From the sequence record MZ726793.1: DNA of 64,000 bases. One strand, written 5' to 3'. A program made the position numbers and the translations under genes. Under the pieces are notes generated by a model. The model searched no databases. It saw only the letters and a list, made by a program, of their open reading frames with translations, and had not been told where the DNA came from. This document shows, in pieces, positions 13,463 to 44,619 of this stretch; the first letter of the stretch is position 1, and each line of letters starts with the position of its first letter. The DNA is from Escherichia phage vB_EcoM_ASO2A.

Positions 13463-13465
13463 ACC

Positions 13466-13494
13466 TTGACATTTATTTTATGTATGGTATACAT
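13466..13494 (+). promoter_or_regulatory. sigma70-like promoter overlapped by a palindrome
   Basis: TTGACA, 17 nt, ATACAT; inverted repeat ATGTATG-GTATA-CATACAT across the -10. Confidence 0.45.
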
Positions 13495-13524
13495 ACATTA
13501 TCAACGTGAGCAAGGTGGTGTAAT

Positions 13525-13797: not shown

Positions 13798-14089
13798 AAT
13801 TTATCTAGCATGGATTGATGTTGGTGCTCCTGATGGTAAACCTTTTCGGCGGGATTGCGGTTTGTGTGCCAACTTATTCGACTATGTGCACGCGGATGGC
13901 TACAATCCCCTTATAACAACCTTGTCAGATGAAATGCACGCACAGTTTTACCACAAAGGGTTAAGTCAAGAATTACCCTTCAATGAGAACTACGATGCAT
14001 ATGTCTTAGAATCAGATGCAGAGGTATGTCACCTGAATGTGGACAGGATTAATTGGGTAAGAGATCGTATTGCAGAGGAGGATGAATAA
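13763..14089 (+). CDS. hypothetical protein, paralog family A
   Basis: 108 aa; family A motifs; overlaps upstream gene. Confidence 0.55.
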   Translation: MKTSARLMEFYKIYLAWIDVGAPDGKPFRRDCGLCANLFDYVHADGYNPLITTLSDEMHAQFYHKGLSQELPFNENYDAYVLESDAEVCHLNVDRINWVRDRIAEEDE

Positions 14090-14316
14090 TGTCGGATTAT
14101 AACTGGTATGAACTTGAGGCTGTTTGTCAGTTTTATGACTCAATAGTTCTGCGTGATCCAATCTGTCAAGAATTGAGTCGCCGTGCAAGTGCATTGGCAA
14201 TCCGTGTTAAAATAAACGGTTGGAACGCAGATTTGGAAAAAGAGTTGGAATTTCTCTTAGAAAACACGCGGGTCTTCCGCAAAGTGTTCCCTGAATGGTT
14301 TGAGATGGAAGAATGA
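14089..14316 (+). CDS. hypothetical protein
   Basis: 75-aa ORF; start overlaps upstream stop. Confidence 0.5.
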   Translation: MSDYNWYELEAVCQFYDSIVLRDPICQELSRRASALAIRVKINGWNADLEKELEFLLENTRVFRKVFPEWFEMEE

Positions 14317-14531
14317 TCATGTGGATTGTGCGTCTTAAGTATGATGGCAAGTTTCCGTGGGAGAAAGATGTTTGTGCTTGTGATTCGGCAGCACATGCCA
14401 AAGCAGCGGGTCAGGCAGTAGTTGACATGTATAACAACACTTCCGTTGATCCAGAAATGGCAGGTGTTACAATGAGCATGTTCACTTACTATTCTTTTGA
14501 GGTTTACTATCATGAAGGAGAGTGGAAATGA
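14313..14531 (+). CDS. hypothetical protein
   Basis: 72-aa ORF; ATGA overlap. Confidence 0.5.
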   Translation: MIMWIVRLKYDGKFPWEKDVCACDSAAHAKAAGQAVVDMYNNTSVDPEMAGVTMSMFTYYSFEVYYHEGEWK

Positions 14532-15679: not shown

Positions 15680-16003
15680 ATGCAAGCAGTTGTTAACGAA
15701 GCTATTATGAACTTATCCTTCTTGTTAGCTGGTTTAGGAGGTGTTCTCATAGGTTTGGCTCTTATCTGGTGTATTCGTCGATTAGTCGGGTACCGACAAA
15801 AAGGTGTTTCATGTTTTGTATCTTACAATTTTACAACTGCTTACAGCAATGAGGTTGGATCTGGCAATGCTCAAGCATTTTTACCAACATATCCTCCTAC
15901 GGTGGAAGATATTCGAAACTTGGAAGTAGAACTTATGGGACTAAGTGATAACTATACATCTCTAGTTATTCAAAATATTTTTCGACTAAAACAGGGGGCG
16001 TGA
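15680..16003 (+). CDS. membrane protein
   Basis: 107 aa; SD AAGGAG; TM helix LLAGLGGVLIGLALIWCI. Confidence 0.55.
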   Translation: MQAVVNEAIMNLSFLLAGLGGVLIGLALIWCIRRLVGYRQKGVSCFVSYNFTTAYSNEVGSGNAQAFLPTYPPTVEDIRNLEVELMGLSDNYTSLVIQNIFRLKQGA

Positions 16004-16216
16004 ATGAAGGTACATTACCCTCATCCGTTTGATCCTAAAAACAAAGCCGTAATTCTTCGTCAGTGGCAACGGGTTTGTCGTACTAAATGTCCAATCAATA
16101 GCCCACACAATGTAGACAAGGACTATCTTGGGACATTTGTTGAATACACTTACATAGACAAAAACAAGCGTAAACAACATGTCGAGGAATACTGCTTAAG
16201 AGTAGAATGGCTGTAA
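16004..16216 (+). CDS. hypothetical protein
   Basis: 70-aa ORF immediately after upstream stop. Confidence 0.5.
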   Translation: MKVHYPHPFDPKNKAVILRQWQRVCRTKCPINSPHNVDKDYLGTFVEYTYIDKNKRKQHVEEYCLRVEWL

Positions 16217-16228
16217 ATAATAAATACC

Positions 16229-16257
16229 TTGACAAATGTTTATTCGTTTTGTAAAGT
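16229..16257 (+). promoter_or_regulatory. sigma70-like promoter upstream of recombinase
   Basis: TTGACA, 17 nt, TAAAGT; near-palindrome AATAAA..TTTATT around the -35. Confidence 0.45.
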
Positions 16258-16286
16258 GAGAATACAGCAATGGTTTAGGAGTGGTT

Positions 16287-16958
16287 ATGAAAAAGTTTGT
16301 TGTTTACAGTCGTCTTTCTAAACAGAAAAAAGGTGAGGCACAATATGGTATGGAGAGCCAAGAGAACGATATCCGTTACTTCTTAGACTCTGTACCTGAT
16401 GCGGAAGTTATTGGTCAATTTTCTGAATACTATTCGGGTAAGGGCGATTGGAAGCAACGTAAGGAACTGGTTAAAGCGGTTGAAATGTGTAAAGCTACCG
16501 GAGCAACTTTATTGGTAGCTAAAGTTGACCGCTTGGGTCGTAACAACGCCTCCGTAGCAACTCTTCTAGAAATGATCGATGTTAAGATAGCCATCATGCC
16601 AGACGCAGATAAAATGGTTATACAGCTTCTGTCTGTTCTGGCTGAACAAGAAGTTAGAGGTATTGCTGATCGTATTAAAAAGGGTCTTGCTGTAGCAAAA
16701 AGCAAAGGTGTTTTATTAGGCAGTGCTAATCCTAAAACTGCCGCTGCACGTAGAAAAGGAAAAATGGAATACAACTCTGTTAAAGCAGACGCTTTTGCAG
16801 AGACATTCCGTGAACGTTTGGAGATCCTTAGAGATTTAAATACACCTTACAAAACTATTGCTGAAAAATTCAATAGTAAGAAAATAGCAACAGCACGTGG
16901 TGGTAAATGGGATGCTAAAACTGTTTCTCGTTTGTGTGCCAGACTGAACATTAAATAG
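16287..16958 (+). CDS. serine recombinase (resolvase/invertase family)
   Basis: 223 aa from ATG 16287; N-terminal VVYSRLS...Q with LLVAKVDRLGRN, C-terminal HTH-like region. Confidence 0.7.
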   Translation: MKKFVVYSRLSKQKKGEAQYGMESQENDIRYFLDSVPDAEVIGQFSEYYSGKGDWKQRKELVKAVEMCKATGATLLVAKVDRLGRNNASVATLLEMIDVKIAIMPDADKMVIQLLSVLAEQEVRGIADRIKKGLAVAKSKGVLLGSANPKTAAARRKGKMEYNSVKADAFAETFRERLEILRDLNTPYKTIAEKFNSKKIATARGGKWDAKTVSRLCARLNIK

Positions 16959-16966
16959 GAGAGGAT

Positions 16967-17389
16967 ATGAAACAAGAAAATGAATCTGTAGATCACTTAA
17001 TCATGCTGTCAGCCCTTTTTGCCGGATGGGACGTATTTTTTGAAAATTTGTTCAATTCTGCTACAGATGGTTCCGATTTTATGCGCCAGTTTAAACGACG
17101 AACTGTTGAGGACTATGCTTTCTATTCAGGTCGGATTGAAAAAGGTTACGAAGATACAAATACAACACTCACCATTAAAGTTTTAGATGTGATGTTTAGT
17201 GTTATAGATGCTATCGACGAAAGTCTTCCGATCCTAGATAATTGTAATACGAAAGTCTATGTTTACAAAATAGCTCGTGCTTATGTGTCTGCAAACAGTT
17301 GTCTTCTTTCCACCCAGATTGCCGTGAACAATCTTGCCAACTTGTTTGATGAAGGAGAAACTTTTTATGACAATCGATTTGAAGTGTAA
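16967..17389 (+). CDS. hypothetical protein
   Basis: 140-aa ORF; SD AGGAGAGG. Confidence 0.55.
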   Translation: MKQENESVDHLIMLSALFAGWDVFFENLFNSATDGSDFMRQFKRRTVEDYAFYSGRIEKGYEDTNTTLTIKVLDVMFSVIDAIDESLPILDNCNTKVYVYKIARAYVSANSCLLSTQIAVNNLANLFDEGETFYDNRFEV

Positions 17390-17732
17390 GAGGATTCTTT
17401 TAGATTTCTATAATAATTGGTTAGAACACCTCCGGCTCTTTCCAAGAGAAAGTGGTTACGCTGATGTTGGCTTATGCCGAGGTCTACGTATGTATATAAG
17501 TGATGAATTTCGGGCCGAGCATTCTTTAGCATATTCTGTTTATGGTATGCAATTAGCCAGTTTTGAAAACGCTGGCTTAGATACAACTTTCCCATTTAAC
17601 ACAGCAAAATCTTTTGAGCAAGAGTGTAAGGAAAAACGTTGCATGTTTAATGAAAAACGTGTACAGTGGGTTAAGGATCGAGTTAAACAACTGGAACAAG
17701 AGTTGGATTTCTTCTATGATGAGGCAGAATAA
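17367..17732 (+). CDS. hypothetical protein, paralog family A
   Basis: 121 aa from ATG 17367; SD GAAGGAG; family A motifs. Confidence 0.55.
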   Translation: MTIDLKCKRILLDFYNNWLEHLRLFPRESGYADVGLCRGLRMYISDEFRAEHSLAYSVYGMQLASFENAGLDTTFPFNTAKSFEQECKEKRCMFNEKRVQWVKDRVKQLEQELDFFYDEAE

Positions 17733-18004
17733 TGGATAGACAAACCTTAAAAACAATGGCAGATGCCACTAATTCCCCGTACTTTGAAAAAGTAAGTAAA
17801 TTGGTAGCTCAAGCCGCAGAGGAAGGATATTATAACATAAACATCCACAACCCAAGTCTTATACTAGAAATGCCAAGTGATAAGAAGATACAAGAGAGTA
17901 TCTGTGAAGGTATTGTTAGTTACTGGCGCGAGCGTGGGTGTGGTGCAAACATGGCTTTAGACAGTGCAAACATTGTAAGATATATAAATATTTCTTGGGG
18001 GTGA
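17732..18004 (+). CDS. hypothetical protein
   Basis: 90-aa ORF. Confidence 0.5.
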   Translation: MDRQTLKTMADATNSPYFEKVSKLVAQAAEEGYYNINIHNPSLILEMPSDKKIQESICEGIVSYWRERGCGANMALDSANIVRYINISWG

Positions 18005-18008
18005 TTTT

Positions 18009-18620
18009 ATGATTCAATGCACTCATATCCAAATTACTTGGAGAGATGAACTTTACCATTTGGGACAATTTACTGTAGGGGAAACATACCCTGTCATTAA
18101 ACATAATCCTAACATCGCAAACTTTGATAGGATGGTTCTTGTTGAGGACGATCTGGGTCAAACTTATTCTTTAGATCTAAAATATCCGTTTTCTTACGGC
18201 TACGATTGGATCGTTACTTTTGAAGACGTGGAGGAAAATAAAACAATGAACGAAAAAAATTCTTGGTATTATCGTTGTGAACTGCCGCCAGTAGGTGAAA
18301 AGGTTATCTTTGTTCCTGATTTGGAAAGATATTCTTGGGACAGTTCTTATTCTGTTCCTAAAGAAGGCACCGAAGTTGAAGTTATTGCACATCGCACGAC
18401 TTCGCATGGTAACGATGTAGCAGTTGTTTTCTGGGATGATGAAGGCGCTGCTTGTGCAGGTGGCTTTGTTGCAGGTAACTTTGAACCCCTGCCAGATCCT
18501 TTGAAGGAGGCAATTTTAGGCGTAGCTTCTTTTGGACTCTCTTACACGTCTGCACAGGAGATCGTAGAAGGTATTTTAAACGGTACTGTTCCAAACGAAA
18601 TTTTCAAACAGATTAAGTAA
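18009..18620 (+). CDS. hypothetical protein
   Basis: 203-aa ORF; hairpin CACCCCG-TTCT-GCGGGGTG follows stop. Confidence 0.55.
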   Translation: MIQCTHIQITWRDELYHLGQFTVGETYPVIKHNPNIANFDRMVLVEDDLGQTYSLDLKYPFSYGYDWIVTFEDVEENKTMNEKNSWYYRCELPPVGEKVIFVPDLERYSWDSSYSVPKEGTEVEVIAHRTTSHGNDVAVVFWDDEGAACAGGFVAGNFEPLPDPLKEAILGVASFGLSYTSAQEIVEGILNGTVPNEIFKQIK

Positions 18621-18671
18621 CAGTTGCACCCCGTTCTGCGGGGTGTTATTGTATATGTAAAGGAGGCGCTA

Positions 18672-19010
18672 ATGTATTACACTGAAGACTACATATTGTA
18701 TAACTTTTTTAAAGGTTGGTTGAAATGGGCGGAACAAGCTCCTGTCGGAGATTGTGTTTTTCCTTGGGATTCTCGTCAAGGCTTGTGTCGTTGTTTGGAA
18801 GATTGGCTTATAACCACAAACTACAATTCAGAAACTAAGAAATCTACATCAAACAGATTAAAAATGTTGTTTGAAGAAGATGGTTTAGATCCAATTTATC
18901 CTTTCGGTGAGGAAAGTTTCCACAATGGTCTTTTCCTTGGCACTCAACATTATGATAAAGATCGTGTAGATTGGGTAAAAGAAAAGGTAGCACAGTATGA
19001 ATGGGGTTAA
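18672..19010 (+). CDS. hypothetical protein, paralog family A
   Basis: 112 aa from ATG 18672; SD AAAGGAGG; family A motifs. Confidence 0.55.
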   Translation: MYYTEDYILYNFFKGWLKWAEQAPVGDCVFPWDSRQGLCRCLEDWLITTNYNSETKKSTSNRLKMLFEEDGLDPIYPFGEESFHNGLFLGTQHYDKDRVDWVKEKVAQYEWG

Positions 19011-19200
19011 GAATTATCACCGCTGGTTAGAAAGCTATCTTAAGAAATGTGAACTTGGTGTTCCAGGTTATACTTACGACACGGACGAGATTCTTGATGA
19101 AATGGAAGTTTGGTTTAAAGAGCCTCGTGAACTATTGGAAAACATTCTAATGGCTTGGGATGGTACGGCACAAAGCATTGAAGGAGGTAGAAATGAGTAA
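18997..19200 (+). CDS. hypothetical protein
   Basis: 67-aa ORF. Confidence 0.5.
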   Translation: MNGVKNYHRWLESYLKKCELGVPGYTYDTDEILDEMEVWFKEPRELLENILMAWDGTAQSIEGGRNE

Positions 19201-31582: not shown

Positions 31583-32173
31583 TCAAATTATTAACGAAAC
31601 CGCATGACTAAATCTTGGTTCAGATATAACCTCTGCTACAGTAACATATGTATCGTGCAGCCAAAAAGATTCTACTCTACAAACACAAATACCGTTGATA
31701 ATGAAATCTACACAGGCTTTATTATTTTCGCACACTTGTTGACTATAAACAACCCCTAAAGAGTCATAAAGTGATCTCACTGTTGCTACCATTTCATCTG
31801 TTTCGTCTTCCTGTGAAACAAAGAAAACGAATACAGACAAGTTATTAGCGAAAGTATTGCTATTCTCTACTTCAACCGACTTACAAGGTAAAAAGGAGTA
31901 ATATTTACCATTAGGTATCAATTTCGCCTCAACCTGGTTAAGTATGCTTTGAGATGGTTTTGTTACATAAAAAAGATTTTCTGTTGGGTTTTCAACATTA
32001 CTCCTTACTATGCAACGAGTGGGGTTCGAAGGATCAAAAACATGATCGAAATCGACACACACAGGTAAGTTAACAACTTTAAACTTTTTGCTAAGAATGC
32101 TTACTGCTGTAAAAATCAAACCAGCATTTATTTTGCCAGTGAAAGTTGAACGCATAACTACTCCTCGGATCAT
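31583..32173 (-). CDS. hypothetical protein
   Basis: 196-aa ORF; ATGA overlap with upstream gene. Confidence 0.5.
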   Translation of the reverse strand: MIRGVVMRSTFTGKINAGLIFTAVSILSKKFKVVNLPVCVDFDHVFDPSNPTRCIVRSNVENPTENLFYVTKPSQSILNQVEAKLIPNGKYYSFLPCKSVEVENSNTFANNLSVFVFFVSQEDETDEMVATVRSLYDSLGVVYSQQVCENNKACVDFIINGICVCRVESFWLHDTYVTVAEVISEPRFSHAVSLII

Positions 32174-32861: not shown

Positions 32862-33371
32862 TTAAACAAAATAAAATGGTTGAGAGAGGCCCAAACGATT
32901 CTTTGGGTCGTATACATACCAAGCGTATGCTGTCTTATCTGTTCCACCTGCAACAAACGAAGGCCGTTCTGAAAGGACTATAAGGTTTGTTGGTGGATTC
33001 TTTTGATGGAACTCTCGTCGTTTCTTTGACTCCAAGAAGCCCAACCGAAGAAGATAAATACAAACATCCGCCTCTTTTAAGCTCTTTTCCAAGAACTCCA
33101 TTGCTAACTTAAATGGAGGATTTGTGATTATAATATCGGGACGATTTTCCCATTTATGACTAAAATAATCTTTACCTTCTTCAAGTTCGCAATATTCTGA
33201 ACCTTCAGGAAAATGGCGATAAATCGCTTCAGCTTCACCTCTACAAGGTTCTGCAAAAACCCAACCTTCTTCCTTTAGATTTTTGAAATCTATAACACTA
33301 AACAAACTATTGATTGCTTTTTGCGGTGTCGGATAATAATCGCTCGTTGGGCGATCATAATCTAATGCCAT
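32862..33371 (-). CDS. N6-adenine DNA methyltransferase-like protein (small phage Dam type)
   Basis: 169 aa; DYYPTP near the N-terminus and IITNPPF catalytic motif. Confidence 0.5.
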   Translation of the reverse strand: MALDYDRPTSDYYPTPQKAINSLFSVIDFKNLKEEGWVFAEPCRGEAEAIYRHFPEGSEYCELEEGKDYFSHKWENRPDIIITNPPFKLAMEFLEKSLKEADVCIYLLRLGFLESKKRREFHQKNPPTNLIVLSERPSFVAGGTDKTAYAWYVYDPKNRLGLSQPFYFV

Positions 33372-33789
33372 CTAAAATCTCCTCTTTTGTAATATTATCC
33401 AACTCTTTAAAGGATGAAATCTCGTTTAATAATCCTATTTGATCAGCCTCTAGAGGATAAGTGTTTTTATCTGTTTTTCTAGACAGAATATCTTCAACAA
33501 ACTTATCAATAGCCAAAGAAGAATCATAAAATTTTAAAAGTTGGTAATCCATAGGAGATATTTTGTCATCTCTTAGAAATATTTCTAACATGTTTTCAGT
33601 AGTATCGTGGTTTAGTGTATGTTCACCAAAAATATTAACTTCGTAAACATCTTTGCCAAACCAACGTTTCTTCTTTTCAACAGTATAGGTTTTTGCCACC
33701 AGACCATCTAAACAGTTTCTTGCCCTCTTACATGTTTGACGGTAAGAGTGGATAGCGCCTTCAACAAACTTAGCAGGAACTTGTAACAT
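33355..33789 (-). CDS. hypothetical protein
   Basis: 144-aa ORF. Confidence 0.5.
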   Translation of the reverse strand: MLQVPAKFVEGAIHSYRQTCKRARNCLDGLVAKTYTVEKKKRWFGKDVYEVNIFGEHTLNHDTTENMLEIFLRDDKISPMDYQLLKFYDSSLAIDKFVEDILSRKTDKNTYPLEADQIGLLNEISSFKELDNITKEEILDGIRL

Positions 33790-33834
33790 TATTAATCTCC
33801 TATGTTTAAGAAATGCCCCCGAAGGGGCAGTTTG

Positions 33835-34527
33835 TTAAATAGCGGTTCCTTCGAAATCCGCCACATTTACGAGATTAATATTTTCAGATTTAGAAGTCAA
33901 GTTGTTTTCTGCAACAGATTTTTCTTCAGTATCCGCCTCGTTACCTGCCACGTTACGAGGTTCTTCTTCACCGTAGGGATTACCGAATTTCAAAAGATTG
34001 ATCAATTCTTCTTTGGAGAAGTTTTCTAAATCATCGTCTGTTAATTCAATAATCTCGTCTTGTTCTTCAATAAATGTTTCACCACCAGAAAAAGCATCTC
34101 GCTTTTTAGCTACTTCCATAGCTTGTTCTGGTGTTGCCCCTGCGTCAAGAGCAGCTAAAGCAAAGTCTGACCCACTTCCTACTGCATAATATTCTTCATC
34201 AATCGGATATGCACGTGTTGGGTTGTTACCTTCGTGCAAGAAAATACGTCCGTCTGGATGAACAACAAGTGCAATAAACTCTTCATCTTCTTTATCTGGA
34301 TCAGAGTGAATCATCAAACCAGGGACAGCATCACGTGCTGCTTCGCACTGTAGATTTTGTTCAAACCATTGAAAGAAAGAAAGCACGGAGGTCAGACGAC
34401 CAGCACCACCTACAAGGTAATCTCCAATTTTTCGGACCTTTTTGAAATTAATAGAATCTACACGTCCACCAAAAGTTACCTTACCGTCACTCAAAATCTT
34501 ATTTTTGGTTGCAATAATTGTCGTCAC
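33835..34527 (-). CDS. HslV-like (proteasome beta-type) threonine peptidase homolog
   Basis: 230 aa; N-terminal MTTI, LVGGAG and AVGSGSDFALAA resemble HslV; long acidic C-terminal extension. Confidence 0.45.
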   Translation of the reverse strand: MTTIIATKNKILSDGKVTFGGRVDSINFKKVRKIGDYLVGGAGRLTSVLSFFQWFEQNLQCEAARDAVPGLMIHSDPDKEDEEFIALVVHPDGRIFLHEGNNPTRAYPIDEEYYAVGSGSDFALAALDAGATPEQAMEVAKKRDAFSGGETFIEEQDEIIELTDDDLENFSKEELINLLKFGNPYGEEEPRNVAGNEADTEEKSVAENNLTSKSENINLVNVADFEGTAI

Positions 34528-35030
34528 TATTCTTCCTCCTCTGTTAATGTTTTAAGAACCGCTTTCCCGCCATTCACATATTTGCAGATGTATTCTATCG
34601 CACGTAGTGTCTCTTTGTCAACAAAAATTTGATCAGACGTTGCGAGCGGGTTATTAAGAAGATCACTGCAATCACGAACAAGCAGTGCTTTCTTATTAAA
34701 CAAATTACTTAAGAACAGTAACTTCGCCTCTTCTTCTGTTATGTGCAGAAGGCTAGGATCGGAGCCAGCTATTCCTATTATACAATCAAACAAGCTTTCT
34801 TTACTATCAGAAAGTTCTTGAAAATGGTTTAAAAGCCAATCTTCTCCTAGACACCAACATTTAAACATTTCCAGTTTATCTCGGAGGGTCATATTCTCTA
34901 AAGTAAGAGCAATCTCTTTTTCAATATGGTTTACACAAATTTGACGAAATTCGTTAGGTTTTACGAGTCCCGTTTGATAGCACTCATCTATACCGCTTCT
35001 TCCGATAGCTATTGTTGCTACACCCATCAA
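34527..35030 (-). CDS. hypothetical protein
   Basis: 167-aa ORF. Confidence 0.5.
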   Translation of the reverse strand: MMGVATIAIGRSGIDECYQTGLVKPNEFRQICVNHIEKEIALTLENMTLRDKLEMFKCWCLGEDWLLNHFQELSDSKESLFDCIIGIAGSDPSLLHITEEEAKLLFLSNLFNKKALLVRDCSDLLNNPLATSDQIFVDKETLRAIEYICKYVNGGKAVLKTLTEEEE

Positions 35031-35062
35031 TCCTCCTTATAAATGGCTTCCCTGCCATGTCA

Positions 35063-35872
35063 TTAAATAAACACTTCAGTAATCAGTTTAGACAAACGTC
35101 CACGTTTATTATCGTCCGTTGTCAGTTCAACGTATCCAATAAAATCTACAATTGGCTCACGAACACCTTCTTCATTTTCTGGATATAAAAGTTCCAAAAT
35201 TTGATGCAGACCATTGCTACGTTTTTTAATTGCATATGTCTGGCGAACATCGCCTAATACAATAACATGCGTATTAATACCTGCACGTTCAATAAGAAGT
35301 TTAAGTGTTTCTGTTGACATAAGTTGTGCTTCGTCAATAATGACGATTGTATTATCCAGGGTGGCCCCCAACAAATAGTTAGGAATATTCAATTCGATCT
35401 TACCTGATCCAATATCGTTTTCCAATTTGTTGGCTGTCATGAATTGCTGGAAAATACGTTTTGTAGATTCATAGTGTGCTGCTAGTTTATCTGTTTTATC
35501 TCCAGACAAGAAACCAATCTGGTCATCTCCGACTTCAGTAGGGTTCTTGATAAAAAGTAGTTTACGGAAGTCTCCTGAACGAAGCATCTGCAAAGCTTTC
35601 CATAAAGCAACAGAGGTTTTACCAGTCCCTGCCGGAGCATTTACAACAGTCAGATCATTCCAAATCATGCTTTGAACAATCTTATTTTGGTCCCCTTCAG
35701 GCATAAATTCATCTAAACGGTAATCGTCATTACCTACCGCTTTTGCTGCATAACGGCTTTCAATCTTTGCTGAATTAGCCAGTTTCTGCCGTTGTGTTTT
35801 AGCTGCGGTTTTATTTCCCATAGTAGCACTCCTTTTAGAAGGGGCCGAAGCCCCTTTATTAGTTGTAAGCAT
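35063..35872 (-). CDS. phoH: PhoH-like ATPase
   Basis: 269 aa; Walker A APAGTGKTS; overall PhoH layout. Confidence 0.8.
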   Translation of the reverse strand: MLTTNKGASAPSKRSATMGNKTAAKTQRQKLANSAKIESRYAAKAVGNDDYRLDEFMPEGDQNKIVQSMIWNDLTVVNAPAGTGKTSVALWKALQMLRSGDFRKLLFIKNPTEVGDDQIGFLSGDKTDKLAAHYESTKRIFQQFMTANKLENDIGSGKIELNIPNYLLGATLDNTIVIIDEAQLMSTETLKLLIERAGINTHVIVLGDVRQTYAIKKRSNGLHQILELLYPENEEGVREPIVDFIGYVELTTDDNKRGRLSKLITEVFI

Positions 35873-36359
35873 CTAAAGTTCCAGAAGTCAGAACTTTAAT
35901 TACTCGTTCAGCACGGTTTGGCGTCTGGCTATACCATCGGCTTTTACGCATGTTTTTACCTGCTTGAGTATAATATGCATTGCTGATTAAAGTCAAGCTA
36001 TTTTGAAACCCTTCAGCACCTTTTAACCCCAACTGGAAAACCATGTTGATTATTCCCAATTTACGAGTATCACTAACCTTATCATAGATTGGTGATAAGA
36101 TAGCACTGTTTTTTATGTCTCTCTTCACTTTTGCAACATCGTCAGCAAAGATTTGACGGGCTTCTTTTTCTGTGATAACTCCATTAGTCTTACGACCAAG
36201 AAGATTATCTAAGATTTGAATAGCCTTTGCTTTATCTTTTATTTTAGTCAGAAGGTGTCCTATGCCGACTGTCCAATAACCAAGATGGTCTTGATAAACA
36301 GTAAGCTTCAGTCCTTCATCGACTCGTAGCATATCAAACTCATCTACTACTTTAGCCAT
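35859..36359 (-). CDS. T4-type lysozyme (endolysin)
   Basis: 166 aa; MLRVDEGLKLTVYQDHLGYWTVGIGHLLTK closely matches the T4 lysozyme N-terminus including catalytic E, D and T. Confidence 0.9.
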   Translation of the reverse strand: MAKVVDEFDMLRVDEGLKLTVYQDHLGYWTVGIGHLLTKIKDKAKAIQILDNLLGRKTNGVITEKEARQIFADDVAKVKRDIKNSAILSPIYDKVSDTRKLGIINMVFQLGLKGAEGFQNSLTLISNAYYTQAGKNMRKSRWYSQTPNRAERVIKVLTSGTLDAYN

Positions 36360-36521: not shown

Positions 36522-36782
36522 TTACTCCGCAATTTGAGCCATGAGATCACGCAGTTCGGTAAAACCGCCTACGTATGTTACCTCCCCGTTCACTTCGGAC
36601 AGAATTTGTGGAAATGTGCGTGGAGGAACTCCGGTAAGATCAACAACTGTTTTAGTCATTGATTCTAAATCATAGTCTTGATCAAGACTTAAATATTCAA
36701 ACTGTTTATTGCGCATGGTTAATAGTTGTTTTGACATTTCACAAAATTGACAGTTAGGTTTACCAAAAATTACAAATTCCAT
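36522..36782 (-). CDS. glutaredoxin/thioredoxin-like protein
   Basis: 86 aa; N-terminal CQFC redox motif; next to the rml and nrd genes. Confidence 0.65.
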   Translation of the reverse strand: MEFVIFGKPNCQFCEMSKQLLTMRNKQFEYLSLDQDYDLESMTKTVVDLTGVPPRTFPQILSEVNGEVTYVGGFTELRDLMAQIAE

Positions 36783-37624
36783 TACCTCTCCTTATTAAGT
36801 AATACTGCTAAAGACTGTTCAATACCTTTATTTAAATCTGATTTTGTAAGATAGTGACTGGTTACTAGTTGTGACTTCACCGGACGTGCTGCTGGAGCAT
36901 TATAGGTTGAAGCTGATACCGCCGATATCTTAACAGGTTCTGGCATCTGTGTCAAGATCTTTTCCGCAAACTCCGCCCAAGAAATAAGATGGCTTCCTGC
37001 AAAATGGTAAGTCTTAACAGACCTTGACCAACCTGTTTTTAATACTTCAAAAATAGCTTCTGCTAAATCTGGAGCATATGTTGGACAAGAGAACTGATCA
37101 GCAACAATAATAAAATCACGTTGTCCATCATTATAGCGAGACAACATGGTTTTTAGAAAGTTATTTCCAAATTCGCTATATACCGAGGCTGTTCGAATAA
37201 TATATGCATTTGGGTTAACTCCTCGCACCATTTTTTCACCAAGTTCTTTCGTATACCCATAATTGTTTATTGGGTTAGGTGTAGTATCTTCAAAAATAGG
37301 ATGAGAATAATTAAAAATATAGTCTGTAGAAATATGCACAAAATCAATTTTAAGTTTGCTGCACACTGCCGCAATATTTGCAGGTCCATACGCATTAACA
37401 GCCAAAGCAGTAGCAAAATCATGTTCTGCTTTATCTACAGCCGTATAAGCGGCGCAATTAATAACACCATCTACATAATCTTCAATAATAGCGTTTCGCA
37501 CAGCTTCAAAATTTGTAATATCTACACGTTCTTTAGGATAAATTAAAGATACATTTGAAGGAGCCACTTTACGTAAAGCTTGTCCCAGTTGTCCATTACC
37601 GCCCAATACCAGATATGTTAGCAT
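36782..37624 (-). CDS. rmlD: dTDP-4-dehydrorhamnose reductase
   Basis: 280 aa; N-terminal LVLGGNGQLGQAL Rossmann motif; last gene of the rml operon. Confidence 0.8.
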   Translation of the reverse strand: MLTYLVLGGNGQLGQALRKVAPSNVSLIYPKERVDITNFEAVRNAIIEDYVDGVINCAAYTAVDKAEHDFATALAVNAYGPANIAAVCSKLKIDFVHISTDYIFNYSHPIFEDTTPNPINNYGYTKELGEKMVRGVNPNAYIIRTASVYSEFGNNFLKTMLSRYNDGQRDFIIVADQFSCPTYAPDLAEAIFEVLKTGWSRSVKTYHFAGSHLISWAEFAEKILTQMPEPVKISAVSASTYNAPAARPVKSQLVTSHYLTKSDLNKGIEQSLAVLLNKER

Positions 37625-38184
37625 ACACCCTCGCTACGTAACTGTTGAAAAGATTTAGCCATTGCATCTTTTGTTGATAGAATAGGTTTAAAACCTTCGT
37701 CAAAAATCATATCGAAGCCCCAATCGATCCCTATATCAGGATCATCCCAACGTAAACTTTGTTCACTAGAAGGGTCGTATGGAGTTGTGCATTTGTATTC
37801 AAAGATAGCATCCATACTCAAAACTATAAAACCATGAGCCAAACCAGGCGGAAGCCAAAACTGCGTATGGTGTCGTGCACGAAGAACAACACCGTCCCAA
37901 GCACCGTAAGTTGGACTATCTTTACGTAAATCTACAGCGAAATCCAATACTTCCCCACTTACACAACGAACTAGCTTACCTTGCGGGTTATTTGTTTGAA
38001 AGTGCATTCCTCGCAAAACACCGAAGTTTGATTTAGACATGTTATCTTGAACGAAAGTTTGTCTACCAATAATATCTTCGTATTTTTGTTCATTATATGT
38101 TTCTAGAAAGAAACCACGATCATCTTTATAAACGTCTGGTTTGATAATTACCGCACCTTCAATTTTTGTTTTTTCTACTTTCAT
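37618..38184 (-). CDS. rmlC: dTDP-4-dehydrorhamnose 3,5-epimerase
   Basis: 188 aa from ATG 38184 (ATGA overlap with rmlA stop); cupin-type RmlC motifs DDRGFF and RGMHFQ. Confidence 0.8.
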
Positions 38185-39059
38185 TTTCTCTCCGCTAATT
38201 TGAGTAGGTATTGCCCGTACTCTGTTTTCTTCAGTGAGTTTCCATGATACACCAAAGTCTCTAAAGAAATCCACCCTTTTTTGAAAGCAATTTCTTCCAG
38301 GCACGCAATCTTCAATCCTTGACAGTTCTCAATAGTCTGCACGAATTGACCAGCTTCCATCAGACTGGCGTGTGTTCCTGTGTCAAGCCAAGTAAATCCT
38401 CGTCCGAGAACTTCCACTTGTAACTTCCTGTCTTCTAGGTAGCTGCGATTGATATCAGTGATCTCCAGTTCTCCACGCGCGGAAGGGGTTACTTCTAATG
38501 CACGTTGAATAACAGAGTTATCATAGAAATACAAACCTGTGACAGCATAATCTGATTTAGGATTTTCAGGTTTCTCTTCAATAGAAATAGCTTGACGATT
38601 ACTCCCAAATTCAACCACACCGAATCGTTCAGGATCTTTCACCAAATACCCGAAAATACAAGCTCCGCCCCAAACATCTACCATCTCACTGGCGTTAATC
38701 AGTAGTTTACCAAAGCTTTGTCCGAAGAATAGGTTGTCACCTAAAATAAGAGCAACAGAGTCTTCTCCGATAAAATCTTTACCTATGATGAAAGCTTCCG
38801 CAAGACCTCGTGGCTCGGATTGGATTGCGTAAGTGAGTTTTATCCCAAACATAGACCCATCTCCGAGAAGATACTCAAAGTCTTCCTGATCACCTGGTGT
38901 GGTGATGATTAAAATATCCTTAATGTCAGCCAACATCAATACCGATAAAGGGTAGTAGATCATGGGTTTGTCATACACAGGGAGCAATTGCTTGCTCACA
39001 CTGCGTGTTACCGGATGAAGGCGGGTTCCGCTTCCTCCCGCCAAAATAATACCTTTCAT
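38181..39059 (-). CDS. rmlA: glucose-1-phosphate thymidylyltransferase
   Basis: 292 aa; [18 protein letters not shown]...[17 protein letters not shown] is the RmlA signature. Confidence 0.9.
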
Positions 39060-39067
39060 AACCCTCC

Positions 39068-40060
39068 TTAAATTTTCTCACTCCACCATTGAGGGTTGTT
39101 TAAGTACCATTCAATCGTTGAGTAGAGATCTTGTTCAAATGTAGAGTTTGCACTCCAGCCCAGTTCAGACTCTATCTTAGAAGGATTGATTTCATAACGC
39201 AAGTCATGTCCTTTACGATCTTCAACAAAAGTTATCAAGTTGGAAGAAGGGTAGGTTACTGCTTCTGGATGTACAGTATCCATATAGTCACAAACCATAT
39301 AGATGATCTCCATATTGGTTTTGGGATTACGTGTTCCAACATTATACGTTTGACCTGGTTCTCCACCTGTTGCCACTTGAAGAATAGCTCGCGCATGATC
39401 CTCAACAAAAAGCCAGTCTCGCACCTGGTCGCCTTTACCATACACCGGAATCTCTTTATTCGTCAAGATACTTGTGATGATTTTTGGGATCAGCTTTTCT
39501 GGATGTTGATAAGGCCCAAAGTTATTGGAGCAGTTGGTTATCACAACAGGCAAATCGTAGGTGCGGTGCCAAGCTTTCACAAGATGGTCAGATGCCGCCT
39601 TAGACGCACTGTATGGGCTTGAAGGGGCATAAGCTGTCTCTTCGGTAAAAGGAACGCCAGAGTCTGCCATATCGCCGTACACTTCGTCTGTGGAGACGTG
39701 TACGAACATCTTCAGTTTATTTTTTGGGAGGAGCCTTGCAGCTTCCAATAAATTGTATGTACCAATAATATTGGAGTCAATGAAAACTCGTGGATTCTTG
39801 ATAGAATTATCCACATGACTCTCTGCCGCTAAGTGAATGATGAAATCGGGATTGCACTCTACTACTAAACTTTTGACCTGGGTTTCGTTTGCCAAATCTG
39901 TCATGCTTAGTTTAATGTGAGTGATATCGCCTACATTCTCAATATCTGCTGCATAGCCCATCTTATCAACGACAAAAACTTCGTTATTAGGATCTTGACA
40001 AAGAGAGCGCACCACGGCACTCCCAATAAAACCAAGACCACCTGTTACCAGATAGCGCAT
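39068..40060 (-). CDS. rmlB: dTDP-glucose 4,6-dehydratase
   Basis: 330 aa; [21 protein letters not shown]-binding N-terminus typical of RmlB. Confidence 0.9.
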
Positions 40061-40069
40061 CAGTTCTCC

Positions 40070-40396
40070 TTACCAGACATGTTGAGAAATAATAGTTTCC
40101 GTTTTAATGTTATATTTTTCAAGTAGTTTTGCATAGGCTTCTTTTGCATTCTCATTCAATTGCTCAAGATCTACAGCTATGCTTCCCTCTCCGCCTTCTA
40201 AATCAAGGCCATATATGCAATAAGACTCATCCGCATCGTAGAAAGGAGAGATGCGGCTTAAGTCCAGACCTTCTTGTAAGAACCAGTTAAAATCTCCATC
40301 AAATTCTTCTTCAATTCTAGGATCTTCTCCTACAGCCTCTTCCCATTTATTAAAAGGTGCACCCTGTAACATACGCCATGCAATATCAACTCCCAC
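40070..40396 (-). CDS. hypothetical acidic protein
   Basis: 108-aa ORF. Confidence 0.5.
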   Translation of the reverse strand: MGVDIAWRMLQGAPFNKWEEAVGEDPRIEEEFDGDFNWFLQEGLDLSRISPFYDADESYCIYGLDLEGGEGSIAVDLEQLNENAKEAYAKLLEKYNIKTETIISQHVW

Positions 40397-40532
40397 TATC
40401 TTCCTCCTCTTCTTTTTCTTCTGTATGAACGAAACCTAAGCCGTTACAATTCCAACAAGGAATAAATTGTTCCATACTAACAATAAAATTCCCAGTGCCG
40501 CCGCAGATAGGACAAATACTTACATCATCCAT
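40386..40532 (-). CDS. small zinc-ribbon protein (48 aa)
   Basis: ORF below track cutoff; CPICGG...CWNC. Confidence 0.45.
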   Translation of the reverse strand: MDDVSICPICGGTGNFIVSMEQFIPCWNCNGLGFVHTEEKEEEEDSGS

Positions 40533-40534
40533 TA

Positions 40535-40741
40535 TTAAAGCTCCTCAATCTTTTCTAACATCTGTTTTAACTCATTCTCTGTTAACAGAATTTCTGTGAT
40601 ACCATCATAAGTTTCTACCATCAGAGTAAAACATTTTTCCCCATCTGAACACACAAAAGCGCCACCTTCATCTTCTGTTAAGTCAGAATTAATATCTACA
40701 TCACCAAAATCAATCATCTTTTTCTCCTTTGATAATTTCAA
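40535..40741 (-). CDS. hypothetical protein
   Basis: 68-aa ORF. Confidence 0.5.
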   Translation of the reverse strand: MKLSKEKKMIDFGDVDINSDLTEDEGGAFVCSDGEKCFTLMVETYDGITEILLTENELKQMLEKIEEL

Positions 40742-40928
40742 ACTTGGCTACACCATTAACTATAATGTGACCACAAGACATAACTCCTAGCCAAGGATCG
40801 CCGTTTTTCTTCAGGCGTTTACCGAATACATCACAAAAACCATTCTTCATTTCGGAGGCTTCATAAGAAGCCCCTTTATCAAAAACGTCTTTGAATGTGT
40901 CGATTATACCAACACATCTCAAAATCAT
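40710..40928 (-). CDS. hypothetical protein
   Basis: 72-aa ORF. Confidence 0.45.
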   Translation of the reverse strand: MILRCVGIIDTFKDVFDKGASYEASEMKNGFCDVFGKRLKKNGDPWLGVMSCGHIIVNGVAKFEIIKGEKDD

Positions 40929-42013
40929 TAGAAGTCAAGCTCCTCATCATCAGAGAGATCTTTGTTAGCTGAATTCAATTTGTAATTAGTTAACTGAATC
41001 TCTTGGGCTGCTGACTGAATCAAATCAGGATTCAACCATTTTTCCATCCAAGCTAAAGGACTATGTTTAGGTGCTTTAAACTTGGCTTTCATTTTCAATC
41101 GACGATAAATAGGAGCAGCATTGAAATAAACCCACTGTTTAGACAATTCGGCGTTAAGACCTACAATAAAACGACCTTCACTAAACAGGTAGTCACACCA
41201 CTGTTCCTCTTGTTCAACAACAGTGTCGAGGATCAAAGTCAACTCTTCAATATTGTCTTCGTAAATTTTACGCCAAATTGGGTCATGCATCAATGCATCA
41301 ATTACAGCATAATCCATCTTAACATGCAAGATTTCATCTAGCATAATTTTCTGGATCAGTTTACAAGCCCCAACAAACAGTTGTTGTTCTGCCATAGCAA
41401 AAGTAGCAGAGAAGGAAGATATAAACTGAATACCTTCTAATCCAATCAGGGCTACCATCCCTTTAAGAATCAGCAGTCGAAGTTCATCGTTAGCTTCAAT
41501 CAATCCTAGAGCATACTTATGACCAGCTTCTTCCAACTGACCCATGATATCAGCAATGATACCCATACGATTGAAAATTTTATCATTAATCATAATCTGA
41601 TTGATGACTTCAATTGGATCTGGAGTACATTGACGGATTATTTCAGAATACGTTAACGCATGGAGAACTTCCATTTCACTCTGCTTCATCATCATAGCAC
41701 AGGCTTCATTGTTACTCAAGAATGGAGAGAACAAAGTGATGATTGATTTTGCAAGAGAATCATTTTCCCATTGGAACGATAAGTTTTTAATCATAACATC
41801 ATAGTTGTTTTTAGAACAAGCTACGAAATCTTTACGTGTCTGATCCAGATTAACTTCGTTTTCATCCCAATCTTGTGCTTTTTGAAGTTTGTAGAGTTTG
41901 TGCATTTCAGGGTAAGTCACGTTGATAGAATCAAAAATCCCCAACTGTTCCCCCATGAAAACTGGATATTTACCTGTTTTGTAAGTCTCGTTATGTAAAT
42001 TAATTGCTGCCAT
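40928..42013 (-). CDS. nrdB: ribonucleotide reductase class Ia beta subunit
   Basis: 361 aa; R2 di-iron/ferritin-like architecture; adjacent to nrdA. Confidence 0.85.
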   Translation of the reverse strand: MAAINLHNETYKTGKYPVFMGEQLGIFDSINVTYPEMHKLYKLQKAQDWDENEVNLDQTRKDFVACSKNNYDVMIKNLSFQWENDSLAKSIITLFSPFLSNNEACAMMMKQSEMEVLHALTYSEIIRQCTPDPIEVINQIMINDKIFNRMGIIADIMGQLEEAGHKYALGLIEANDELRLLILKGMVALIGLEGIQFISSFSATFAMAEQQLFVGACKLIQKIMLDEILHVKMDYAVIDALMHDPIWRKIYEDNIEELTLILDTVVEQEEQWCDYLFSEGRFIVGLNAELSKQWVYFNAAPIYRRLKMKAKFKAPKHSPLAWMEKWLNPDLIQSAAQEIQLTNYKLNSANKDLSDDEELDF

Positions 42014-42338
42014 TTAAATCCTCCACTATTTCACAAAAACCTCTTAAGCTTAAAATATCTTCTTCCTCAAAATCATTGCTCCGGTAGAAAGCTTCCAGTG
42101 CTTCCCATACGCTTCTACCAAGTATAACAGTCACTGTTTCTTCACTTCTTGCCCTTGTTATTGCGTAAGCCGTGGCTTCTGGATAAAAAGATTCCCAAAT
42201 CTGCATGTTAGCTATTTCAAGACCGCCAAGATAATGGTGACACCAAGTAGGGGTAAAATCTTCAGGGCGAATCAACAGAGGCTTAAACCCAGGTCGGTAG
42301 ATTGGGGTTACTCCAGGTAAAACTATAATTGTGCTCAT
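42000..42338 (-). CDS. hypothetical protein
   Basis: 112 aa from ATG 42338, downstream of hairpin 42357-42370 and SD GAGGAGG. Confidence 0.5.
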   Translation of the reverse strand: MSTIIVLPGVTPIYRPGFKPLLIRPEDFTPTWCHHYLGGLEIANMQIWESFYPEATAYAITRARSEETVTVILGRSVWEALEAFYRSNDFEEEDILSLRGFCEIVEDLNGSN

Positions 42339-42378
42339 AATCCTCCTCAATAAAAAGGGGCTGAAGCCCCTAGTTTCA

Positions 42379-44619
42379 TCACATTTTGCAAGCTTCACAA
42401 CCACCATCAGAATCTTCTTGTGCTAAAGAGTCTGCTGATTTTGTTCTACTGTTAAGGTAATACAATGACTTGCCACCCAGTCTAGCAAAATTCAGAATAA
42501 ACTGCATCTCAGCTTTCACTGATAAACGTCCACCTACCAATTTAGAATAATCTAGCCAAGAATCACAAGAAATTCCTTGGTCCGTAAACTTGGTAAAGAT
42601 ACCATACATTTCTGCAAGATCTTTAGCCGGAGTGTCCCAGGCAGACTGGTAGAACATTTTCAGTTTTTCATAGTCTGGAACAATAAATAATACACTACCT
42701 TTCTGACTTTGTTTATACATAATAGTATCACGAACAGGATACAGAGAGTTAGTAGTATTGCTTACCAAACTGCTGGACTCATTAGGTGCAATAGCAGCCA
42801 AGACACTGTTACGGATACCACCTTGTTCAATGATTTCAGCACGTAAGCCTTCCCAGTCCATTTTAAGATCAAAATTACCGATACTATCTACTGTTTTAGC
42901 ATAAGTGTCAATTGGTAGCCAACCTTGAGGCCATTTGGTCTTATCGATCCATTCTGCATTACCTTTTTCCTTAGCCAGACGCAGAGAGGCTTTTGCCAAC
43001 CAAAAGTAATGACGTTCTGCAAGTTCATGCATTAATTTTTTAGCATAAGCGTCTGAATAATTTACAAAATTACTTGCCAAATAATGCGCTAAGTTTGTAA
43101 TGCCTACACCAATAGATCTACGTGCTTTAGCAGTTATTTCGTTATGTTTAAATGGATAATCCATTGTTTCAATAACGTTGTCAATTGTCAATACAGTGTA
43201 GTATGCAACATCCTCATATTCTTCAGGTAAGACACGACCAGCAACAATAGAAGATAAGAAGCATAAAGCCAATTCTTGATTTTCTGTATTCTCACCAGTA
43301 AAGAGATCCGGCATACTGTGGAAAGCTTTAGTTGGTAAGAAGATCTCTTGACACAGGTTTGATTGATACACCGTATCCAGGAAAGGTGTATGGTTGTTAA
43401 CGTTGTCAGCAAAGAACATGTAAATACGTCCTGTTTCTGCACGTTGAACAATAATCTCTGTCAGAAGATCACGAGCCTTAACAAATTTTTTCTTAATGCG
43501 ACGACGGCTTACTTTGTCATAAACTGCATCAAACTCTTCTTCACTTTTATACAAAGCTTCATAAAGTTCAGGAGCATCATCACAACTAACTAACATCCAA
43601 TCTTCGTTTTTTGCTGCTCGACGCAAGAACGAACGGTTAACAACAATAGAATAATCCAGTTTGTCTACTCGTTTATCTATAGGTGTTGTTGGATTCTTCA
43701 GTCGAATCAGATCGTCGAAGTCTGGTTCAAGTATGGTAAAGGTAACTGTAGCACTACCTCCACGGCTTGCTTGCTTCGAAGCTCCAACACTATCTTCCAT
43801 CCATTTCAGATACGGAAGAAGACCACCATGAATAATACGATTATTCTTAACACCTTGACCTGTGGCACGAGTTTGAAGATTAACACCAATACCTGCGTTA
43901 TTCAACGTATACTCATGAGCTAAGTAATTAGCAATGGCTAAAGACTCTGCCGTATCGTCTGCACGGAACAAACAACAAGACGCACTTCCTTTGATTGGAG
44001 TTCGTAGAGTTGTCAGATACGGCGATGGCAGATTAATCTTAAGATCGCTAACATAAGTATAAAGTTTTTTAATATCTTCTATACGGCGTTCTTTTGGTTG
44101 GATCTCCATAACCTTCATTGCGATACCAATGAAAAGAAACTGTGGAGACTCATGCACCACATCGTTTACTGCATCTCGAATAAGATATTTATCTACCATC
44201 TGACGTAAAACAGAATAACCATAAGTTAGATTTTTATTATGCTTTACAATCTTACCGATTTCTTTGATCTCTTCATCAGTATAATCCATTTTAGCCCAAT
44301 GTCCACGTTCTACCATATCATGATAAAAGGTATTCAGTGAAGGGATACTGTGGTATCCCCCATGAGCCTGTTTGTAAATCATACCCAGAAGAAGTCTTCC
44401 TGCCATATCACTGTAAGCTTGTGTTTTCTTGTCAATACACGCTGCAATCATTGCTTTATGCAGATCACGTGTAGACACACCGTCATAACACCGCTTCACA
44501 GCTTCTAATTCAATTTCAGACCAGTTTAGTTTACCTGCTGCAAATTCAGACCACTTGCGAAGTTTTTCTGGATTAAACTCCTCTGTCTTACCGTTAGATT
44601 TAGTTACAAAACGAATCAA
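42379..44619 (-). CDS. nrdA: ribonucleotide reductase class Ia alpha subunit
   Basis: 746 aa; NLCQEIFLPT active-site region and C-terminal CxxC tail. Confidence 0.9.
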   Translation of the reverse strand: MIRFVTKSNGKTEEFNPEKLRKWSEFAAGKLNWSEIELEAVKRCYDGVSTRDLHKAMIAACIDKKTQAYSDMAGRLLLGMIYKQAHGGYHSIPSLNTFYHDMVERGHWAKMDYTDEEIKEIGKIVKHNKNLTYGYSVLRQMVDKYLIRDAVNDVVHESPQFLFIGIAMKVMEIQPKERRIEDIKKLYTYVSDLKINLPSPYLTTLRTPIKGSASCCLFRADDTAESLAIANYLAHEYTLNNAGIGVNLQTRATGQGVKNNRIIHGGLLPYLKWMEDSVGASKQASRGGSATVTFTILEPDFDDLIRLKNPTTPIDKRVDKLDYSIVVNRSFLRRAAKNEDWMLVSCDDAPELYEALYKSEEEFDAVYDKVSRRRIKKKFVKARDLLTEIIVQRAETGRIYMFFADNVNNHTPFLDTVYQSNLCQEIFLPTKAFHSMPDLFTGENTENQELALCFLSSIVAGRVLPEEYEDVAYYTVLTIDNVIETMDYPFKHNEITAKARRSIGVGITNLAHYLASNFVNYSDAYAKKLMHELAERHYFWLAKASLRLAKEKGNAEWIDKTKWPQGWLPIDTYAKTVDSIGNFDLKMDWEGLRAEIIEQGGIRNSVLAAIAPNESSSLVSNTTNSLYPVRDTIMYKQSQKGSVLFIVPDYEKLKMFYQSAWDTPAKDLAEMYGIFTKFTDQGISCDSWLDYSKLVGGRLSVKAEMQFILNFARLGGKSLYYLNSRTKSADSLAQEDSDGGCEACKM

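Follow-up and report, generated by a model that had tools for sequence, protein, structure and literature searches.

The open reading frame (ORF) on the minus strand at positions 33835..34527 of a 64,000-nucleotide stretch of Escherichia phage vB_EcoM_ASO2A (record MZ726793.1; the whole stretch is hereafter called the window) encodes a predicted protein of 230 amino acids. It is probably a competent N-terminal threonine peptidase without a propeptide, which belongs to a phage-borne branch of the proteasome-beta/HslV fold, works without the unfoldase HslU and is accessory to the phage. This reading, based on sequence comparison and a structure model, draws on a conserved proteasome-type active site, on the apparent loss of features with which HslV binds HslU, and on a natural deletion in a related phage.

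Sequence, active site and fold

The gene is genuine and not a chance ORF, as judged from a full-length match to phrog_1040 (residues 1-229, E = 1.6e-63), a match to the Pfam family Proteasome (PF00227; 25.6 bits, above the gathering cut-off of 22.4) and 88 homologues, the best with E = 2e-146. The ORF of 230 amino acids, its N-terminus MTTI and the motifs GGAG (residues 40-43) and GSGS (residues 117-120) were all found as described in the original prediction, which had been made from the letters of the window and had called the protein HslV-like. The whole protein is strongly acidic, with an isoelectric point (pI) of 4.35 computed from the sequence. The features of the gene are the following:

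33835..34527, minus strand: coding sequence of the 230-amino-acid proteasome-like (PPH/RPC-class) threonine peptidase, assigned from the ORF and its start, phrog_1040, PF00227 and HslV structures
33835-33837, minus strand: stop codon, inside the span of the coding sequence
34527-34525, minus strand: GTG start codon, read from the sequence
34524-34522, minus strand: codon of the predicted nucleophile threonine (Thr2 in the precursor, Thr1 once matured), read from the sequence
34535..34541, minus strand: strong Shine-Dalgarno sequence GAGGAGG, 7 nt 5' of the GTG start, found by reading the upstream 40 nt
34063..34527, minus strand: predicted catalytic core, residues 1-155, delimited by the AlphaFold2 model, Foldseek and conservation of the acidic stretch
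33979..34047, minus strand: start of the tail, residues 161-183, ELTDDDLENFSKEELINLLKFGN, delimited by alignment, model confidence (~83-85) and a motif shared with homologues from Aeromonas and Vibrio phages
33838..33978, minus strand: distal tail, residues 184-230, delimited by charge, model confidence, low identity and the lack of a Pfam domain
33814..33829, minus strand: terminator-like hairpin, rich in G+C (TGCCCCTTCGGGGGCA, then TTTCTT), 5 nt past the stop codon, found by a consensus scan alone, which is no proof of function

In an alignment of 28 homologues, extending down to 27 % identity, M1, T2, T3, I4, D14, K30, G43, G117, S118, G119 and D144 were invariant, and the G40/G43 region was invariant or nearly so. 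The full proteasome-type active site was present (Thr2, Asp14, Lys30, Gly40, Ser118, Asp144 and Ser147), the conserved residues corresponding to Thr1, Asp17, Lys33, the Gly45/48 region, Ser124/129 and Asp166 in HslV and the proteasome. The sequence RDxxSGG at residues 143-149 is of the proteasome-beta type, compared with the AG[DE]IC that we take to be its HslV counterpart. An MTT start was found in 135 of the 150 best library representatives, most of the others starting with MST, MTS, MTV or LTT or being apparently truncated. The N-terminal threonine is thus conserved.

The closest relatives with solved structures were HslV proteins (T. maritima, 1M4Y, E = 4.9e-9), and the best matches to proteasome beta5 chains covered residues 109-160. 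The AlphaFold2 model had a mean predicted local distance difference test (pLDDT) score of 81.7, mostly above 90 in the core, and the folded core ended at about residue 155. Foldseek matched the core to HslV, BPH (Betaproteobacteria proteasome homologue) and 20S proteasome beta subunits (E ~1e-10, probability 1.00), and the possibility that the fold is that of another class of N-terminal nucleophile (Ntn) hydrolase was not borne out. As modelled, the core is a proteasome-beta/HslV Ntn fold with one long helix, H1 (residues 45-67), followed by a loop (68-83); the second helix, H2, is absent. The acidic stretch DPDKEDEEF (residues 76-84; HSDPDKEDEEF in the query) precedes strand S7, and its D-E-[ED]-F part is conserved.

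With the family profile, phage-type proteins of ~140 amino acids scored 100-117 bits, compared with 44-56 bits for HslV proteins in the PDB, and the protein is therefore placed in the PPH/RPC phage branch. Homologues of ~140 amino acids occur in Caulobacter and Rhizobium phages, and many of the representatives have 137-160 amino acids. The peptidase fits PPH and RPC taken jointly, as far as can be judged from a comparison in which the reference PPH and RPC sequences (WP_042125023 and WP_140207863) entered by description only.

Acidic C-terminal tail

The tail comprises residues 156-230, ~75 residues past the core, so that the ~80-residue acidic extension originally described was correct to within a few residues. 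Between residues 150 and 230 there are 23 Asp/Glu and 5 Lys/Arg, giving a net charge of -18 and a pI of 4.05; residues 161-230 have a net charge of -13. The tail start, ELTDDDLENFSKEELINLLKFGN, is modelled as a helix (164-169), a turn and a second helix (172-181) with a pLDDT of ~83-85, and carries a helix-turn-helix motif, [TS]xExxxx(hydrophobic)[ST][KR]E[EQ]L. This motif is kept in homologues from Aeromonas and Vibrio phages at ~35 % identity and was found in 38 of the 150 best representatives with a simple pattern. Among 22 tailed homologues the mean identity was 40 % in the tail start (161-183) and 12 % in the distal tail. The latter (184-230) is predicted to be disordered, with a pLDDT below 50 at residues 189-229.

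Acidity itself is a common feature of the tails. In 103 tailed homologues the median content was 23 % acidic and 7 % basic residues, and the 40 residues past the motif were net acidic in 98 % of them. Some relatives have extra C-terminal domains, reaching 379 amino acids in total; a Pfam search of six tails gave no significant domain match. In the proteasome superfamily the C-termini mostly face away from the ring and are possible interaction sites (Fuchs et al., PMC8665760).

Relationship to HslV and HslU

The term HslV-like was appropriate in so far as the protein is a threonine peptidase of the HslV/proteasome-beta fold, but it overstated the relationship, since the protein scores far below the HslV cut-offs, lacks H2 in the model and groups with the PPH/RPC branch. 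The NCBIfam HslV equivalogs NF003964 (cut-off 137) and TIGR03692 (cut-off 157.75) gave 32.2 and 31.4 bits, respectively. Identity to E. coli HslV was ~22 %, and the range for HslV was about 22-28 %.

In HslV the C-terminal HslU tail is bound in a pocket that includes Phe54, Phe57, Ala79, Lys80 and Gln114 (PMC6429459). Phe54 and Phe57, located in H1, align with Leu49 and Phe52, and these are the only two pocket hydrophobics that are kept; Ala79 and Lys80 lie in H2, which is absent from the AlphaFold2 model, and Gln114 aligns with Pro108 and is hence not conserved. HslV also requires a basic pore cluster, Arg86/Arg89/Lys90. The segment aligned with this cluster is acidic, and conserved as such, in the phage protein and its relatives, although the alignment is approximate there. 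Lys28 of HslV, presumably the residue that binds the C-terminal carboxylate of HslU, aligns with a variable position (Ser/Thr/Gln/Asp).

No HslU was found in the window, in agreement with the original prediction, and the statement extends to the complete genome of phAPEC8, a near-identical phage, among whose annotations there is no HslU, ClpX or ClpA gene. Likewise, no hslU was found within 6 kb in 80 related viral loci, for which the screen covered PhoH and the gp014 AAA ATPase only. No AAA+ partner co-occurs with any of the new proteasome homologues described by Fuchs et al. (PMC8665760). By score, pocket, pore cluster and partner gene, the protein does not qualify as a canonical HslV.

The gp014 AAA ATPase (PF00004) was considered as an unfoldase partner and rejected. 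By record coordinates it lies ~105 kb away, its C-terminus (...LGSVF) has no HbYX or HslU-type tail, and its homologues, often labelled clamp loader or replication proteins, occur mainly in Firmicutes phages, unlike the peptidase. At phAPEC8 139005-141404 (40706-43105 of stretch L010), outside the window, the gene of this classical AAA ATPase (PF00004, phrog_2376) adjoins one for an endonuclease that has CapR-homology and treble-clef zinc-finger domains.

The original prediction had suggested that the peptidase might hijack the HslU of the host. In such a case it would dock on the host HslU (ClpY) hexamer, replacing or competing with HslV, and redirect ATP-dependent degradation to targets useful to the phage. 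HslV is indeed the closest sequence family with solved structures, the phage genome has no annotated unfoldase, the hosts are Proteobacteria, which have HslUV, and the two H1 positions of the pocket are still occupied by Leu49 and Phe52. Against this stand the low identity to E. coli HslV with scores far under the equivalog cut-offs, the absence of H2 with its Ala79 and Lys80, the non-conserved Gln114 and the acidic character of the segment aligned with the required basic cluster. Moreover BPH, an HslV descendant with similar changes, did not pull down HslU. No positive evidence for hijacking was found, and recruitment of host HslU is considered unlikely.

Proposed mode of action

The peptidase is thus probably independent of HslU, judging from its sequence and the modelled core. 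In E. coli HslV, Thr1 is exposed by removal of the initiator methionine, and threonine is a permissive second residue for methionine aminopeptidase. The host methionine aminopeptidase would similarly strip the initiator Met of the phage protein and expose Thr1, which would act as the nucleophile together with Lys30 and Asp14. The subunits, of which only the monomer was modelled, may come together as a self-compartmentalising particle of ring shape, from which the tails would point outward. This particle would act without HslU, by analogy with BPH or the uncapped 20S proteasome, on unstructured proteins or on specific host or phage proteins, possibly in the early-to-middle period of an infection. 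The tail, and perhaps also the product of a translationally coupled upstream ORF, may recruit substrates or partners or regulate access to the particle.

BPH, which has an acidic pore loop and no known unfoldase, and the uncapped 20S proteasome have been proposed as models for such unfoldase-less proteins (PMC8665760). Rrp, a proteasome-like protease of a mobile element, processes the ribosomal protein bL27 without an unfoldase (bioRxiv 10.64898/2026.08.10.744006) and is the only experimental precedent found, applicable here by analogy.

Several observations count against an HslU-independent, ring-forming peptidase. The absence of H2 comes from a predicted model with a pLDDT of ~76 in this region, and the sequence alignment over residues 66-84 is not structurally reliable. 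Two of the pocket residues, Phe54 and Phe57, still have counterparts in H1. The known hosts of the tailed subfamily are all Proteobacteria, which possess HslUV. The standalone homologues BPH and Anbu are inert in standard peptidase assays, for which reason proteolysis by the phage protein is inferred here, and some of the new homologues may not form rings (Fuchs et al., PMC8665760). The link between the upstream ORF and the peptidase, finally, is one of synteny in a single phage lineage.

Neighbouring genes and the upstream ORF

The following neighbours were identified in the window:

34527..35030, minus strand: upstream ORF of 166-167 amino acids, phrog_14834, the stop codon of which overlaps the peptidase start (the RefSeq start is an ATG one codon later)
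35063..35872, minus strand: PhoH-like P-loop ATPase, a syntenic neighbour (phrog_170; PF02562, 1.2e-36)
33355..33789, minus strand: downstream ORF of 144 amino acids, phrog_15078, a syntenic neighbour in the close group

In phAPEC8 these genes are part of a minus-strand block of early/middle type, in which genes for lysozyme, the PhoH-like ATPase, a 167-amino-acid ORF, the peptidase, a 144-amino-acid ORF and a DNA methyltransferase are found, with ribonucleotide reductase, thymidylate synthase and sugar-nucleotide genes farther along. Each of the 17 close IMG/VR loci, in which peptidase identity is 59 % or more, had the block from lysozyme through PhoH, the upstream ORF and the peptidase to the downstream ORF, as did the metagenomic contig L012, the peptidase of which is ~50 % identical to the query. 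PhoH also lies ~3 kb upstream of the peptidase in the Aeromonas type. Neither PhoH nor the upstream or downstream ORF was near the peptidase in 60 more distant loci with short homologues, and the synteny is therefore lineage-specific. PhoH was rejected as a general partner, as it is nearby only in the close lineage and the Aeromonas/Vibrio types and not in the 60 distant loci.

The upstream ORF ends with a stop codon that has 1 nt in common with the start codon of the peptidase (TAGTG), and in phage PD06 the overlap is 4 nt. The upstream protein has the conserved motifs GLVKPNEFRQ, LVRDCSD and VDKETLRA and an all-helical AlphaFold2 model (pLDDT 91), for which no informative fold or family match was obtained. 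An ORF in the equivalent position of Vibrio phage VnaP showed a weak C-terminal resemblance to it (E = 0.006 in a search of 15 sequences). From its position the upstream ORF is a candidate partner only. Neither the peptidase nor either of its two small neighbours matched a defence system in PADLOC.

Instead of acting on its own, the peptidase could be one half of a two-component phage system, with the upstream helical protein as adaptor, gate, inhibitor or substrate, or, with less likelihood, with the PhoH-like ATPase as partner. The overlap of the genes speaks for such a system, as do the adjoining of the upstream ORF in the 17 close loci and in L012, down to ~50 % peptidase identity, its good conservation and confident fold, the resemblance in VnaP, and the joint loss in phage VEcB of part of PhoH, the upstream ORF and the N-terminus of the peptidase. 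The co-occurrence is, however, limited to one phage lineage and may for that reason only mirror shared ancestry; neither gene is near the 60 more distant loci, the upstream protein matches no informative fold or family, and PhoH belongs to a helicase-like P-loop family and is not an AAA+ unfoldase. A two-component system is accordingly regarded as rather unlikely.

Some further features of the region were observed. A sigma-70-like near-consensus site (TTGACA, 18-nt spacer, TAGAAT; 11 of 12 matches) lies at 34592..34621 on the minus strand, within the upstream ORF and ~65 nt 5' of the peptidase start; over the region as a whole, promoter-like sites were no more numerous than expected by chance. 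In Vibrio phage 1.193.O (positions 2767-3867 of stretch L003) PhoH and the peptidase are separated by an inserted IS605 OrfB/TnpB-type gene (PF01385, PF07282), in the position that the small upstream ORF occupies in other phages. Aeromonas phage 2L372D has two adjoining HslV-family genes (positions 3432-3983 and 4001-4885 of stretch L002), the first encoding a paralogue of 183 amino acids with an MTCIIA start and GCG in place of GSG, the second a tailed homologue of 294 amino acids; this pair may form a two-subunit particle.

A set of dTDP-sugar genes and four glycosyltransferase genes were noted in phAPEC8, at 37131-40409 (15783-19061 of stretch L001, corresponding to about 36780-40060 of the window) and at 11319-14466 of stretch L010. 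The dTDP-sugar genes code for a glucose-1-phosphate thymidylyltransferase, a dTDP-4-dehydrorhamnose 3,5-epimerase and a pair of nucleotide-sugar epimerases. The glycosyltransferase genes lie in another part of the genome, and the annotation names no target, be it DNA, the host surface or another. At 31583..32173 on the minus strand of the window there is an ORF of 196 amino acids that RefSeq calls histidyl tRNA synthetase (phAPEC8 gp181), and a second such gene is present elsewhere. With 196 amino acids gp181 is far below the size of a complete HisRS, and the label probably reflects a partial domain or a carried-over annotation.

Natural deletion in phage VEcB

Escherichia phage VEcB, an isolated phage with a complete Justusliebigvirus genome, has a single gene of 804 nt in the interval from lysozyme to the downstream ORF, which in its relatives holds three genes. 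In this gene (NC_052663.1 21495-22298; positions 2501-3304 of stretch L093) a deletion of ~1.1 kb has fused residues 1-113 of PhoH in frame to the peptidase from about residue 65. Thr1, the catalytic Asp and Lys, the Gly motif and the entire upstream ORF are thereby lost, and RefSeq still labels the fusion 'peptidase HslV family'. Provided that the assembly is correct, the deletion indicates that lytic growth in the laboratory does not require the module, and the peptidase would be accessory, not essential, for such growth.

Distribution and earlier annotation

Bases 33000-36000 of the window matched Escherichia phage PNJ1809-36 at 100 % identity and phAPEC8 at 99.5 %, phages of the genus Phapecoctavirus, subfamily Stephanstirmvirinae. 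In the RefSeq record of phAPEC8 the peptidase gene is gp175, labelled 'peptidase HslV family'; other records use 'ATP-dependent protease subunit HslV' or 'putative proteasome component'. A homologue was present in 233 phage records, and 137 viral contig stretches encode a relative; BFVD also returned phage matches. Hosts of the phages with homologues include Escherichia, Klebsiella, Vibrio, Aeromonas, Caulobacter and Rhizobium. An exhaustive profile search of 1.84 billion representative proteins gave 58 matches at E <= 1e-30 and 4815 at E <= 1e-10. Records named as Campylobacter phages (A145, A150 and B15), Acinetobacter phage ABPW7 and a Pseudomonas phage were at least 99 % identical to E. 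coli Phapecoctavirus/Justusliebigvirus in the peptidase region, and their host labels look doubtful.

The original prediction had considered such a phage subunit unusual, which was too strong. Annotations of the gene already exist in dozens of deposited genomes, proteasome homologues of phages that lack an ATPase partner have been reported (Fuchs, Alva and Lupas 2021, Bioinformatics 37:4694; PMC8665760), and the presence of HslV without HslU has been remarked on in other phage genome papers. On the function of phage HslV/proteasome-like proteins, the literature found comprised annotation-level mentions, the bioinformatic study of Fuchs et al. and the Rrp preprint only. What is new here is modest: the tail motif, the acidity of the tail, the acidic stretch at the pore-loop position, the co-conserved upstream ORF and the natural deletion in VEcB.

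Other possible functions

The protein might also be a monomeric or otherwise non-ring Ntn enzyme that does not degrade proteins, such as a processing protease like Rrp, a ligase or transpeptidase like connectase, or an amidase of small molecules. Connectase, a monomeric ligase, and Rrp, a site-specific protease, are indeed homologues of the proteasome, BPH and Anbu are inactive on standard substrates, and the loss of H2 and addition of a tail could alter subunit assembly. The full proteasome-type catalytic set is nevertheless conserved, including GSG and RDxxSGG, and the closest folds are those of the ring-forming HslV and BPH, which makes a non-degradative function quite unlikely.

A more speculative extension of the preferred HslU-independent peptidase concerns the sequence DDDLENF in the conserved motif of the tail, which has the pattern [DE]-D-L-x-x-[FY] and resembles the C-terminal peptide EDLSRFIL with which E. 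coli HslU activates HslV. The motif is short, is weaker in distant relatives (Leu replaced by Ala) and is internal, the HslU peptide being a free C-terminus. The tailed subfamily could conceivably be a self-sufficient proteolytic module in which HslU is replaced by built-in or co-encoded parts: DDDLENF would insert between subunits, in cis or in trans, and keep the ring active, and the acidic tails and the upstream helical protein would select substrates, for example defence or stress proteins of the host. We consider this very improbable. Least credible is a decoy or poison subunit that co-assembles with host HslV, or sequesters HslU through its acidic tail, and so inhibits HslVU and protects phage proteins: it is suggested by nothing more than a general homology to HslV and the absence of an HslU gene from the phage, an inhibitor would not need every catalytic residue strictly conserved, and mixed rings with HslV are unlikely because of the ~22 % identity and the missing helix.

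Significance and comparison with known systems

Phage-borne proteasome homologues are widespread, with the 233 phage records and thousands of metagenome relatives. The version from E. coli phages provides a convenient entry to them, as the host is tractable, hslU and hslV knockouts exist and VEcB offers a natural deletion. Should the peptidase indeed be free of an unfoldase and attack specific proteins of the host, it would represent a novel type of phage tool for takeover of the host or for counter-defence.

HslV (ClpQ) and the phage peptidase have in common the Ntn fold, a Thr1 exposed by Met removal (predicted for the phage protein) and the equivalents of Asp17, Lys33, Gly45 and Ser124. The phage protein differs in its 75-residue tail, in the absence of H2 from its model, in having no adjacent hslU and in the acidic segment in place of Arg86/Arg89/Lys90. 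BPH (PDB 5OVS/5OVT), which is among the top structural matches to the model, is an HslV descendant that has lost HslU interface residues; its pore region is acidic and no unfoldase is known for it. In contrast to the viral peptidase, it retains H2, possesses a long acidic pore loop, forms double rings of 14 subunits and is encoded by a cellular, stress-linked gene. Rrp (SP_1145) of S. pneumoniae TIGR4, likened here by description only, is another proteasome-like Ntn protease encoded by a mobile element; it has relatives in phages and acts on a specific substrate, bL27, without an unfoldase. It differs in being described as Anbu-like (group II), in having extra domains and in coming from a Firmicute.

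The PPH and RPC proteins (PMC8665760) have a compact group-I core without a propeptide or H2 and without the elements S12/H5, and are carried by Caudovirales; RPC has in addition a C-terminal extension of unknown fold. PPH proper is tail-less, with ~140 amino acids, RPC has been reported only from Proteobacteria and not from phages, and the paper describing them makes no mention of a helix-turn-helix at the tail start or of conserved acidity of the tail. Residues 1-155 of the phage protein fit the compact core, its best non-self relatives are the phage-type proteins of ~140 amino acids, and with residues 156-230 it shares with RPC the possession of a C-terminal extension.

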